A DNA stretch of 64,000 bases from a virus, in IMG/VR virus record IMGVR_UViG_3300020055_000005, positions 64,001 through 128,000 of that record; one strand, given 5' to 3'. The translations under genes and the position numbers were made by a program. Shown here one piece after another: positions 53,382 to 62,180 of the stretch. Under the pieces are notes generated by a model, which worked only from the letters and a program-made list of their open reading frames with translations, was not told the origin of the DNA and ran no database searches. Every line of letters starts with the position of its first letter. Positions within the stretch are counted from its first letter, which is position 1.

Positions 53382-54683
53382 CTACTTCTTTTTTGCATCT
53401 AACTCTGCCTGTTTCCATTCAAGTGCTTTCTTGTTTGCAGGGAATGAACTTGACCATCCCATCATCTTACCATACAATGCATTAACCTTTTTCTTTAAAG
53501 CTGCATGATCATCATCATTTACAATCTCTATAAAGTTTTTACCAAATAACTTTTTAAACCCATTAACGTTCTTTTGTGATGCATTCCAATCTTTCTCTAC
53601 AACTTCCTTTGGAAGTTTTCTTGCACGTTCATCATTTCTTGCCTGTGCAAACTCTAATGAAGTGTTAACGAATACCATTTTGTATTCGTAACCTGCATTG
53701 TCTAATAACTTCTTATAGTTTTTAATCTTGGATGCCTTTGCACCTGTAGTGTCAAATATCATTCCGAGTCTACCTCTGATATACGCACTCATGTTTTTTG
53801 CAGTAATCTCTTTTGCACGTGCTCTGATTGGGTCTCTAAGTTCTGCATCCATGTTTCTCAAGTCAAGACCAAGTCCTGCCTTTTTCAGACCAGTCTCAAA
53901 TGCCTTGTCAGTGTTTACAATCTTCAATCCTAATGCAGTCAATCCTAGTTCACTAACAACTGTTGATTTACCTGAACCAGGCCCACCCATCAAGAACACT
54001 GCCTTGAAGATGCCTGGGTCATACACACCCTCTTGTATTAAGTCTTCTACCATGTATTTTGGTGCAGAGTATAAGTCTTCTGTTAGACCCATTCCCTTAC
54101 GTATTGCTTTATATAATTTCTGTGCATGACGTTTACCAGTAGAAGGAACCCCATCTTTGAATGAGTCGAAGTCACCCTTCTCTGCGAATGCTCTCATTTT
54201 AGATGCACTCATTCCTGATACATCGTCGGCGTCAGGGTCACGATCACCTGCAGATATAACTTGAATCTCATCAAATTTATAGAAACCGTGACGACCTTTC
54301 ACCGAATTATACTTGTTAATGATAGTGTCAAACTCTCTAATTCTATCTGAACCTACGACCATTCTAATCTTAGTGTAACCTTTATCGTGTAAGAATGTTA
54401 GGATTTGAAAAATCTGTTTTACATCTGCATCGACAACATTTACCTTCTTACCAAAGAATGCACGTAAAAATTTAATTTTATCTTTGTGCGATAAAGGATT
54501 CTTAATCTTATCGTTTGAATGTGATGAAAACAATAATGCATCACCATATCCTTTTGCAACTTTGTTTAACTTATCAACTAATTTTTCGTGACCGTTTGTA
54601 GGAGGATTAAATCGACCAAAGGTGAACACTGCACCTTTTCCTTTTGCCTCTGATAACCACGATGTAAATGTTTTATTTGGCAT
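53382..54683 (-). CDS. HxGH nucleotidyltransferase fused to P-loop (zeta/AAA_33-like) kinase
   Basis: FGRFNPPTNGH, VGSDR, SASKMR; then MGGPGSGKS, VNTD, IFDTTG, RN..R.R. Confidence 0.85.
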   Translation of the reverse strand: MPNKTFTSWLSEAKGKGAVFTFGRFNPPTNGHEKLVDKLNKVAKGYGDALLFSSHSNDKIKNPLSHKDKIKFLRAFFGKKVNVVDADVKQIFQILTFLHDKGYTKIRMVVGSDRIREFDTIINKYNSVKGRHGFYKFDEIQVISAGDRDPDADDVSGMSASKMRAFAEKGDFDSFKDGVPSTGKRHAQKLYKAIRKGMGLTEDLYSAPKYMVEDLIQEGVYDPGIFKAVFLMGGPGSGKSTVVSELGLTALGLKIVNTDKAFETGLKKAGLGLDLRNMDAELRDPIRARAKEITAKNMSAYIRGRLGMIFDTTGAKASKIKNYKKLLDNAGYEYKMVFVNTSLEFAQARNDERARKLPKEVVEKDWNASQKNVNGFKKLFGKNFIEIVNDDDHAALKKKVNALYGKMMGWSSSFPANKKALEWKQAELDAKKK

Positions 54684-60677: not shown

Positions 60678-60860
60678 TTATGTGTTTTGTGAAGGGGTTT
60701 TTTTTAATTCTTTTGAAATTTCTGATAATTTAACTTCGCACTTGACGTGTTCTTCCATCATAGTACGTAACACTCTTATTTGCATTTCCATGTGGGCGAC
60801 AAAACCCATAATCACTAGGATAGAACCTAAGTAAAAACAATCTAAGAGATCAAGTGTCAT
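60678..60860 (-). CDS. Small membrane protein
   Basis: One TM helix; ATGA-coupled. Confidence 0.6.
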   Translation of the reverse strand: MTLDLLDCFYLGSILVIMGFVAHMEMQIRVLRTMMEEHVKCEVKLSEISKELKKTPSQNT

Positions 60861-61297
60861 AGTTCTACTTCACCTGATTCAGTTAATATATCCCTATTTT
60901 TTAGATGTTCTGCTTCGATCTCTTCTTTGTTTCCACCACCATAATCGACTGCATGATGATCATCAATCATTTGTTGATTGACATTTATTTCTGTTTCGAA
61001 TTGAGGATGACCCTCATTGTTATGAATGTAAATCTCTCCAAGGATTCTACCAAACTTACCTTTATCGTGTGAGATAAGAGAAATTCTTTCACCACTTTCT
61101 AGAAGTTTCTTTAAGTGTTTCTTTGATGCTTTTCCAAATTTCTTTTCAACCAAGTCTCTTGTTCTAGATTCAGGCGTGTCGATACCCATGAGCCTAACTC
61201 TTTGTTTGCGATAGGTCATGCCGAATCCTAGATCGATGTCCACGTCTATAGTGTCACCATCCACTACTTTTATAACTGATACATTATACTGATACAT
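60857..61297 (-). CDS. Thermonuclease (SNase)-like nuclease
   Basis: VVDGDT, RVRL.GIDTPE, GKFGRILG. Confidence 0.9.
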   Translation of the reverse strand: MYQYNVSVIKVVDGDTIDVDIDLGFGMTYRKQRVRLMGIDTPESRTRDLVEKKFGKASKKHLKKLLESGERISLISHDKGKFGRILGEIYIHNNEGHPQFETEINVNQQMIDDHHAVDYGGGNKEEIEAEHLKNRDILTESGEVEL

Positions 61298-61314: not shown

Positions 61315-61342
61315 AAGTTAAGGGGAACTCAGTCCCCCTTAA
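61315..61342 (-). terminator. Terminator-like hairpin
   Basis: TTAAGGGGGA-CTGAG-TTCCCCTTAA-CTTT. Confidence 0.55.
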
Positions 61343-61420
61343 CAGTTCTACATTTCTGTGGGAACTCTGAACAGTAGAGCATCATTGCCTCTAGCAACAT
61401 TGCTGTTGGAATGACTTCTT

Positions 61421-61693
61421 CTACTTTTTTTCAGGCGTCTCCTGTAGTTCATCGGTTTGTCTGTCAACCTCATCTGCAACAGTGTCTACTACACCTATTA
61501 CAGTTTCAGTTGCGAGAGTACCGACTGATACTACATCGTCTGCTACTGCTGTTGCAACGGTTCTTGTTCCTTTTACTGCACCGTCAACAACACCAGTTGT
61601 AAATTCTTTACCACCTTCAATTACACTACCAACTGTAGCGCATGATGGAAGTAATACCACAGAAAATAGTAACATATACATTACTATTTTCAT
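61421..61693 (-). CDS. Lipoprotein, possibly extended to 61329 by -1 frameshift
   Basis: SD GGAG; LPSC lipobox; amphipathic V/G/T-rich body; ends GAA AAA AAG TAG. Confidence 0.8.
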   Translation of the reverse strand: MKIVMYMLLFSVVLLPSCATVGSVIEGGKEFTTGVVDGAVKGTRTVATAVADDVVSVGTLATETVIGVVDTVADEVDRQTDELQETPEKK

Positions 61694-61756
61694 AATTATC
61701 TCCAAATTTGGATAAATCTGTTACACCTCCAACTGAGAGTGTAACCCCACATTTAT

Positions 61757-62032
61757 TTATGTAAGATAACAACCTGAAGACTTTAGTTTGAGGTCAATCT
61801 CGTTATGCACCTCGTATGGGTATGGTACTGGTTCTATAGATAGATTTTCTGCAGCTATCATTAGGTCTTCTAATCTGAGTCTTTCTTTGACGTATGTAAT
61901 AATAATCACTATTGCACCTATAAATGCGAATATGTGTAACATTTCATTTGGAAACATAATCGTAAGTCCAATAATATGTGCAACCAGCACACTATACACA
62001 TAAAACTTTATACTAATCAGTAGGTGCCACAT
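61757..62032 (-). CDS. Membrane protein
   Basis: Two TM helices. Confidence 0.55.
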   Translation of the reverse strand: MWHLLISIKFYVYSVLVAHIIGLTIMFPNEMLHIFAFIGAIVIIITYVKERLRLEDLMIAAENLSIEPVPYPYEVHNEIDLKLKSSGCYLT

Positions 62033-62180
62033 TCAACAACAAATCCTTAAACTCATTCGTGTGCCAATAACTATCTAATGTGATATCAACTACTAGTGCA
62101 ATCAATACCATTGTTAAGATAATCCCCAAATATAAATTGACGAATGCATTAATTTTCATCCATCGTATCAAGTGTTTCAT
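62013..62180 (-). CDS. 55-aa membrane protein (not in track)
   Basis: MKHLIRWMKINAFVNLYLGIILTMVLIALVVD...; ATGA-coupled. Confidence 0.6.
   Translation of the reverse strand: MKHLIRWMKINAFVNLYLGIILTMVLIALVVDITLDSYWHTNEFKDLLLNVAPTD

Follow-up and report, generated by a model that had tools for sequence, protein, structure and literature searches.

The locus analysed here raises the question of whether a phage lipoprotein gene is decoded in two ways. The gene lies on the minus strand and ends in CCT GAA AAA AAG TAG, so that its last codons form a heptamer of the A AAA AAG type, and the -1 frame continues open beyond the stop codon. We examined it in a window of 64,000 nt, corresponding to positions 64,001 to 128,000 of the 151-kb IMG/VR virus record IMGVR_UViG_3300020055_000005, which is estimated to be 83% complete. 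The G+C content of the window is 37.6%. The source is an uncultured marine T4-like phage, the UvsX protein of which shares 73% identity with its counterpart in Methylophilales phage Melnitz and 69% with the one in Pelagibacter phage HTVC008M. The lipoprotein gene is located between the DNA polymerase and uvsX genes. The gene next downstream (window 60857-61297, minus strand) encodes a staphylococcal-nuclease-like endonuclease (Pfam SNase, 2e-12; phrog_452, 7.7e-36) and is syntenic across the whole of the window's clade. The features of the coding region and of its immediate surroundings are as follows, in window positions:

61700-61703, minus strand: Shine-Dalgarno sequence GGAG, 6 nt before the ATG, read from the sequence
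61693-61421, minus strand: 0-frame lipoprotein ORF, with ATG at 61693 and 90 aa plus TAG
61693-61640, minus strand: signal peptide with lipobox L-P-S-C (Cys18), within the lipoprotein ORF
61639-61424, minus strand: mature lipoprotein, short form, 72 aa, rich in V, T, G, A and D, with an 11-residue periodicity
61443-61439, minus strand: AGGAG, Shine-Dalgarno-like, 8 nt before the heptamer
61424-61430, minus strand: slippery heptamer A AAA AAG in the X XXY YYZ register
61421-61423, minus strand: 0-frame stop TAG, directly 3' of the heptamer
61329-61424, minus strand: -1 frame extension, 31 sense codons (61424-61332) and TGA (61331-61329)
61381-61415, minus strand: candidate weak 3' structure from the minimum-energy fold, GUCAUUCC/GG-c-AAUGAU around a 4-bp hairpin
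61350-61376, minus strand: YCSEFPQKC, the Y-C-x3-P-x2-C motif of the extension
61317-61343, minus strand: terminator-like hairpin with the -1 frame stop in its loop

The coordinates and sequence statements of the original prediction, which had described a frameshift site at this place, were all right, with the feature lying on the minus strand. We confirmed the A AAA AAG at the end of the lipoprotein ORF in a shift-competent frame (61430-61424), and found the AGGAG 8 nt upstream of it (61443-61439). The 31-codon -1 frame with its stop (TGA, 61331-61329) in the loop of a hairpin (61343-61317) was likewise as described.

We first consider the protein. It starts with a basic and hydrophobic N-terminal signal followed by a lipobox, and the cysteine and the alanine next to it are invariant in 57 family sequences; it is, by these features, a predicted bacterial-type lipoprotein and signal peptidase II substrate. 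In the mature short form, the autocorrelation at lag 11 is 0.45 and the hydrophobic moment peaks at 98.2 degrees; this 11-residue periodicity may reflect a hendecad coiled coil or an 11/3 amphipathic helix. An AlphaFold2 model of a fused relative (P0061, see below) consisted of helices with a pLDDT of 42, which is too low for use. Searches of the lipoprotein against Pfam, PHROGs, NCBIfam and PDB sequences gave no credible relative. Individual members of the family had sub-threshold Pfam matches with E values of 0.01-0.1, including one to Synuclein, one to DUF948 and three to Senescence; these matches are weak and did not amount to true homology. An assignment as an Rz1-like o-spanin was also rejected, as there is no i-spanin partner and the mature part is not proline-rich; of the neighbours examined for this purpose, the 55-aa protein has one hydrophobic segment and the 91-aa protein has two.

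We propose that this is a late-transcribed phage lipoprotein which is very probably decoded in two ways by means of a -1 frameshift. Most ribosomes would stop at the TAG (61423-61421) and release the 90-aa precursor. On A AAA AAG some would move back by one base as tRNA-Lys re-pairs in both the P and A sites, and would then read 31 codons of the -1 frame before stopping in the loop of the 3' hairpin. Because the signal peptide and the lipidated cysteine are common to both isoforms, both should be envelope-anchored and facing the periplasm. The long form would additionally carry a helix and a C-x6-C loop, whose two cysteines could form a periplasmic disulfide. We infer from sequence the ribosomal nature of the slippage and its efficiency, as well as the lipidation, the disulfide and any function of the two products.

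Taken by itself, the window is suggestive of a frameshift, but it is weak evidence and not proof, and the case depends on the relatives. Among 100 window ORFs of at least 80 aa, A AAA AAG or G GGA AAG occurs in frame six times. Only the heptamer of the lipoprotein gene has a long -1 frame behind it, of 31 codons versus 1-7 codons for the others. A null distribution made from the -1 open lengths at all gene ends was unusable, because the frame often enters the next gene. An in-frame A AAA AAG is also present two codons before the stop of the ORF at window 53382-54683 (minus strand), where the -1 frame is shut after three codons; this site was ruled out as an extension candidate for that reason.

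A scan of viral contigs yielded 74 loci related to the lipoprotein gene. In 69 of them, an in-frame slippery heptamer stands 0-1 codon before the 0-frame stop and the -1 frame is open. The remaining five loci comprise one that is cut off and four (L071-74) in which both the heptamer and the extension are missing. A AAA AAG TAG followed by 31-32 extra codons was observed at 44 loci, A AAA AAG GAY TAA with 38 extra codons at 10 loci, and G GGA AAG TAG or TAA with 37 or 50 extra codons at 15 loci. All 44 loci of the window's clade have the same heptamer, and in the nine distinct sequences of this clade the heptamer and the stop are invariant while the flanking codons are variable. More distant relatives, obtained via their proteins, were:

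L077-80: A AAA AAG GAC TAA, 42 extra codons
L087-88: A AAA AAG TAA, 40 extra codons
L084-85: A AAA AAG TAA, 58 extra codons
L083: G GGA AAG TAA, 67 extra codons
L094: G GGA AAC TAA, 66 extra codons
L095: C CCA AAA GAG TAA, 56 extra codons

Overall, four types of heptamer (A AAA AAG, G GGA AAG, G GGA AAC and C CCA AAA) thus occur in the same register. The -1 frame is open for 31-67 codons in every heptamer-bearing locus, and in all heptamer-bearing lineages the 0-frame stop follows either directly after the heptamer or one codon later. A relative in a cyanophage-like context, L092, had no extension; together with the L071-74 lineage, this indicates that the long form is dispensable for some relatives.

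Next, we analysed the peptide encoded by the -1 frame. The extensions nearly always end in a helix followed by YCxxxPxxC, and the Y, C, P and C of this motif are invariant in an alignment of 14 divergent extensions. Variants of the motif are found in L083 and L094, in which the proline is replaced, and in L095, which has F-C-x5-C. The helix, claimed to be hydrophobic in the original prediction, is indeed moderately so in the window's clade; elsewhere it is amphipathic, and it never reaches transmembrane hydrophobicity. In the window-type extension, pN/pS was 0.26 for the -1 frame, as against 0.79 and 1.30 for the other frames. The -1 frame had the minimum pN/pS in all four length classes (0.26, 0.75, 0.26 and 0.52), with values from 0.65 to 9.4 for the two other frames of these classes. 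Comparison across the relatives shows both the putative recoding signal and the predicted -1 frame peptide to be under selection. It had been suggested that conservation of the extension in related phages should be checked; the extension is kept at the codon level, and is uninterrupted in the 69 of 74 loci as well as in the further lineages.

Two relatives encode the long form in a single frame, and each of these fused forms comes from one short, low-coverage contig. In the first one, P0061 (locus L075, 136 aa), comparison with the near-identical L076 revealed a 29-nt (3n+2) deletion, which spans the 0-frame stop and the hairpin, and a synonymous change of CCA AAA AAG to CCT AAG AAG. As the deletion fuses the two frames and AAA AAG has become AAG AAG, the slippery codons were lost at the very place where the fusion made them unneeded. 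The second single-frame form, P0089 (L082, 88 aa), has an internal deletion. A search among longer proteins with a profile of the extension found P0061 as the only long form, so that a split by the predicted frameshift is the rule in the family. The codon-level conservation, the heptamers kept in register and the two natural in-frame fusions all support the -1 frameshift reading made originally from the window.

We then looked for stimulatory elements. As cross-clade RNAalifold was uninformative owing to indels, each lineage was folded separately. In all 13 folded representatives outside the window's clade, covering about ten lineages, a hairpin is present 5-8 nt after the heptamer. The sequences of these hairpins are unrelated, and their z values range from -1.4 to -5.2, with nine of the 13 at -2.2 or below. 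The residues encoded by the hairpin are the least conserved part of the extension, as expected for a constraint at the RNA level. The linker that encodes the hairpin is absent in the window's own clade, in which the z values of the downstream fold lie between -0.8 and -1.5 and the best local fold has an 8-nt spacer and a bulged 8-bp stem around a 4-bp hairpin. For the candidate structure at 61381-61415, 94% of cells pair in nine relatives, with one compensatory pair. The stems AACAG/CTGTT and TAGAG/CTCTA, to which a stimulatory role had been ascribed, do exist, and the former begins 16 nt after the heptamer, but as stimulators they found no support: the 60 nt downstream of the heptamer in the window fold no better than shuffles (z -0.84), and neither stem has a compensatory change in nine relatives, although the alignment is compatible with both.

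The Shine-Dalgarno-like element is found in the window and in some relatives, and is absent in L001, L007-L023 and the other clades; roughly half of the window's clade lacks it. The description of the site as dnaX-type is therefore right for the heptamer, which is the same, and not for the upstream stimulator, which is not conserved. For this reason, we regard the predicted mechanism as canonical -1 frameshifting that is not strictly dnaX-type. Since the window's clade has no significant downstream structure and the Shine-Dalgarno-like element is not conserved, the efficiency of frameshifting in this clade may be low or modest. What stays constant is the heptamer together with the 0-frame stop next to it. 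An adjacent stop can reportedly itself promote shifting, the 'shifty stop' effect ascribed to Weiss et al. in 1987. In E. coli, the three heptamers that shift most efficiently include A AAA AAG and G GGA AAG (PMC4066793), and the dnaX site in a short-cassette reporter gave 14% (2025 preprint, 10.1101/2025.10.02.679949).

The absence of a significant stimulator in the window's own clade also bears on the alternative that nothing is programmed here, the heptamer just encoding Lys-Lys or Gly-Lys, with the conservation reflecting an RNA structure or terminator and shifting being negligible. The AT-rich genome and the five other in-frame heptamers in the window would fit this explanation. We consider it very unlikely, because purifying selection is specific to the -1 frame, the Y/C/P/C residues are invariant over lineages whose nucleotide sequences are divergent, and the slippery codons disappeared at the very locus where the fusion went in-frame.

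The same fused protein could be made by transcriptional slippage, in which RNA polymerase would add one A in the A-run and translation would be normal. In the window's clade there is a run of seven A, and one extra A gives the identical protein. However, 7-A runs are short for efficient transcriptional slippage, other lineages have only six A, and some, with G GGA AAG, G GGA AAC or C CCA AAA, have no long homopolymer while the architecture is the same. The hairpin 5-8 nt downstream moreover has the geometry of a ribosomal stimulator. Slippage by the polymerase thus seems a quite improbable source of the long form, and ribosomal frameshifting remains our preferred reading.

We also asked whether the downstream frame might be a separate small gene or a product of termination-reinitiation that is not joined to the lipoprotein, since the window's extension contains internal ATG codons. 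Methionine is absent from the L044, L050 and L057 extension types, and in the L054, L058 and L062-L069 types there is none upstream of the conserved helix; GTG/TTG starts were examined by eye, in L044 and L054 only. With some extensions devoid of methionine, or having none before the helix, a separate gene starting at an AUG is ruled out for the conserved part, as judged from these sequences. VEEVIPT, with which the extension begins, is kept through synonymous changes, and this, the conservation of the heptamer in register and the two natural single-frame fusions all argue against an unjoined product, which we hold to be extremely unlikely. Finally, homopolymers are error-prone and one fused relative exists, but a sequencing or assembly error, or a pseudogene of one longer ORF, is scarcely conceivable as the cause of a frame break that is shared by more than 80 contigs, the products of many independent samples and assemblers, and that also occurs at heptamers that are not homopolymers.

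The frameshift that we propose would operate in a gene with its own transcription signals and in a conserved gene neighbourhood, the elements of which are:

61754-61761, minus strand: late-promoter-like motif, T4-type, CATAAATA (NATAAATA), upstream of the lipoprotein gene
61720-61745, minus strand: 5'-leader stem-loop GUUACAC...GUGUAAC with loop CAGWUGG, about 9 nt after the promoter motif
61757-62032, minus strand: cassette gene 2, 91 aa, two hydrophobic segments
62013-62180, minus strand: cassette gene 1, 55 aa, one hydrophobic segment

The motif NATAAATA, which we take to be the late-promoter consensus of marine T4-like phages, was scanned for in 13 lineages and lies 54-73 nt ahead of the ATG in 12 of them; it also occurs upstream of L092 and L095. 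The GGAG Shine-Dalgarno sequence is kept in most relatives. In the leader, RNAalifold on 11 lineages gave a stem-loop of 10 pairs, seven of them with compensatory changes. Counted from the start of the promoter motif, the CAGWUGG loop begins after 24-26 nt in 11 of 12 motif-bearing lineages and after 41 nt in L057. This stem-loop had no match in Rfam; it may be an mRNA-stabilising or protein-binding element. The G-rich hairpin after the extension is kept in relatives with differing stem sequences, as judged by eye, and in L075 and L087 the sequence after the extension resembles a canonical terminator, with a GC hairpin and a U-run. With a promoter motif upstream and a terminator-like hairpin after the extension, the gene seems to form a monocistronic late unit, of which the -1 frame is a part. 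A role in superinfection exclusion or in the envelope had been put forward as possible for the extended lipoprotein; on the assumption that exclusion genes are mostly early, the conserved late-type promoter motif does not obviously favour exclusion.

The lipoprotein gene is the third gene of a conserved cassette (window 61421-62180, minus strand), which we also found at L077:1975-2844, L084:490-1363 and L087:1944-2788. The 55-aa product of gene 1 is 50-66% identical to that of a small upstream gene in L077, L084 and L087, and tblastn placed gene 1 upstream in L063, L064, L069, L070, L077 and L078. Gene 2 is homologous to a gene of about 100 aa just upstream in L077 and L082 and, weakly (E 0.007), in L084; its product measures 91-103 aa across the relatives and has two hydrophobic segments. 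The cassette occurs in two settings: between the polymerase and uvsX genes in the window and, in L077 and L087, with a FecR-like gene on one side and a CHASE2 cyclase gene on the other. The source phage has a CHASE2 cyclase homologue of its own at G000:C1:134380-136239, about 6.4 kb past the end of the window, with 41% identity to that of L077 and one in-frame TAG within the match. The FecR/CHASE2 neighbours look cellular, but with this cyclase they have a counterpart in the window's phage itself. Our guess would be a late envelope role of the lipoprotein together with the two small membrane proteins of the cassette.

The locus, the lipoprotein, its 55-aa neighbour and a divergent homologue had no match in DNA and protein searches of 50,697 cultured-phage records, and scanning 185,579 species-representative genomes with a profile gave no relative either. 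In the ESM Atlas, the nearest three clusters all come from viruses, and an exhaustive HMMER search gave only 51 clusters at 50% identity. As all but one of 63 protein clusters for the lipoprotein gene contain the short form only, the tail of 31-67 aa is missing from current protein sets. Full-text literature searching found no report of recoding in a lipoprotein gene, and the word 'lipoprotein' is absent from a comprehensive recoding review (PMC5009743) and from the PRFect paper. The conserved arrangement for a probable frameshift in this lipoprotein gene appears to be unreported, and gene callers miss it.

We compared the locus with known systems. The frameshift of lambda G/GT is alike in having a canonical heptamer at the very end of the upstream ORF, G GGA AAG being identical in many of our lineages, in giving a minor C-terminally extended isoform beside a major short one, and in an arrangement kept across divergent phages despite sequence drift. 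However, the product of lambda is a cytoplasmic tail assembly chaperone and not an envelope lipoprotein, and the families are unrelated. The extension is merely 31-67 aa here, and most lineages have a clear 3' hairpin, whereas we know of none for lambda G/GT. E. coli dnaX (tau/gamma) shares the A AAA AAG, the stem-loop 5-8 nt downstream in most lineages and, in the window, the AGGAG 8 nt upstream. In dnaX, ribosomes that shift terminate early and the product is shorter; here, the shift would carry ribosomes past the adjacent stop and make the product longer.

In the capsid genes 10A/10B of T7 and T3, a -1 shift near the end of a late gene similarly gives a minor C-terminally extended isoform, and in T7 sequence within the downstream terminator contributes to the shift (PMC5009743). 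The heptamer of these phages is of the G GUU UUC type, and the product is a structural component of the virion and not a lipoprotein. OrfAB of IS3/IS911 is alike in combining A AAA AAG with a structure downstream, which is a stem-loop or three-way junction (PMC5009743, PMC4066793). In contrast to our locus, two sizeable transposase ORFs are joined there and no stop stands right after the site. T5 Llp, the lambda Rz1 o-spanin and phi80 Cor are also small phage-encoded lipoproteins in the host envelope, and some lipoproteins of this group use cysteines for disulfides. They have no sequence similarity to the lipoprotein described here, and we are not aware of recoding in any of them.

As a tentative extension of these results, which we think possible but doubtful as a whole, the frameshift would set a fixed ratio of isoforms, and the lipoprotein would be the third member of an undescribed three-gene membrane cassette (with a 55-aa single-pass and an about 100-aa two-pass protein) of abundant SAR11/OM43-type marine myophages. 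The disulfide-looped tail might then be the active part in a novel late function in the envelope, for example lysis control, masking of receptors for the progeny or exclusion.

The usual phage cases of recoding are tail chaperones, capsid proteins and transposases, and a conserved recoding family seems to be added here outside them. Its product would be a secreted, lipid-anchored envelope protein, made by phages related to those of the most abundant marine heterotrophs. The family offers a natural series, with four heptamers, many unrelated hairpins, one clade with no obvious stimulator, lineages that lack the extension and two single-frame reversions. With such a series, how frameshift signals evolve and are tuned can be tested directly.
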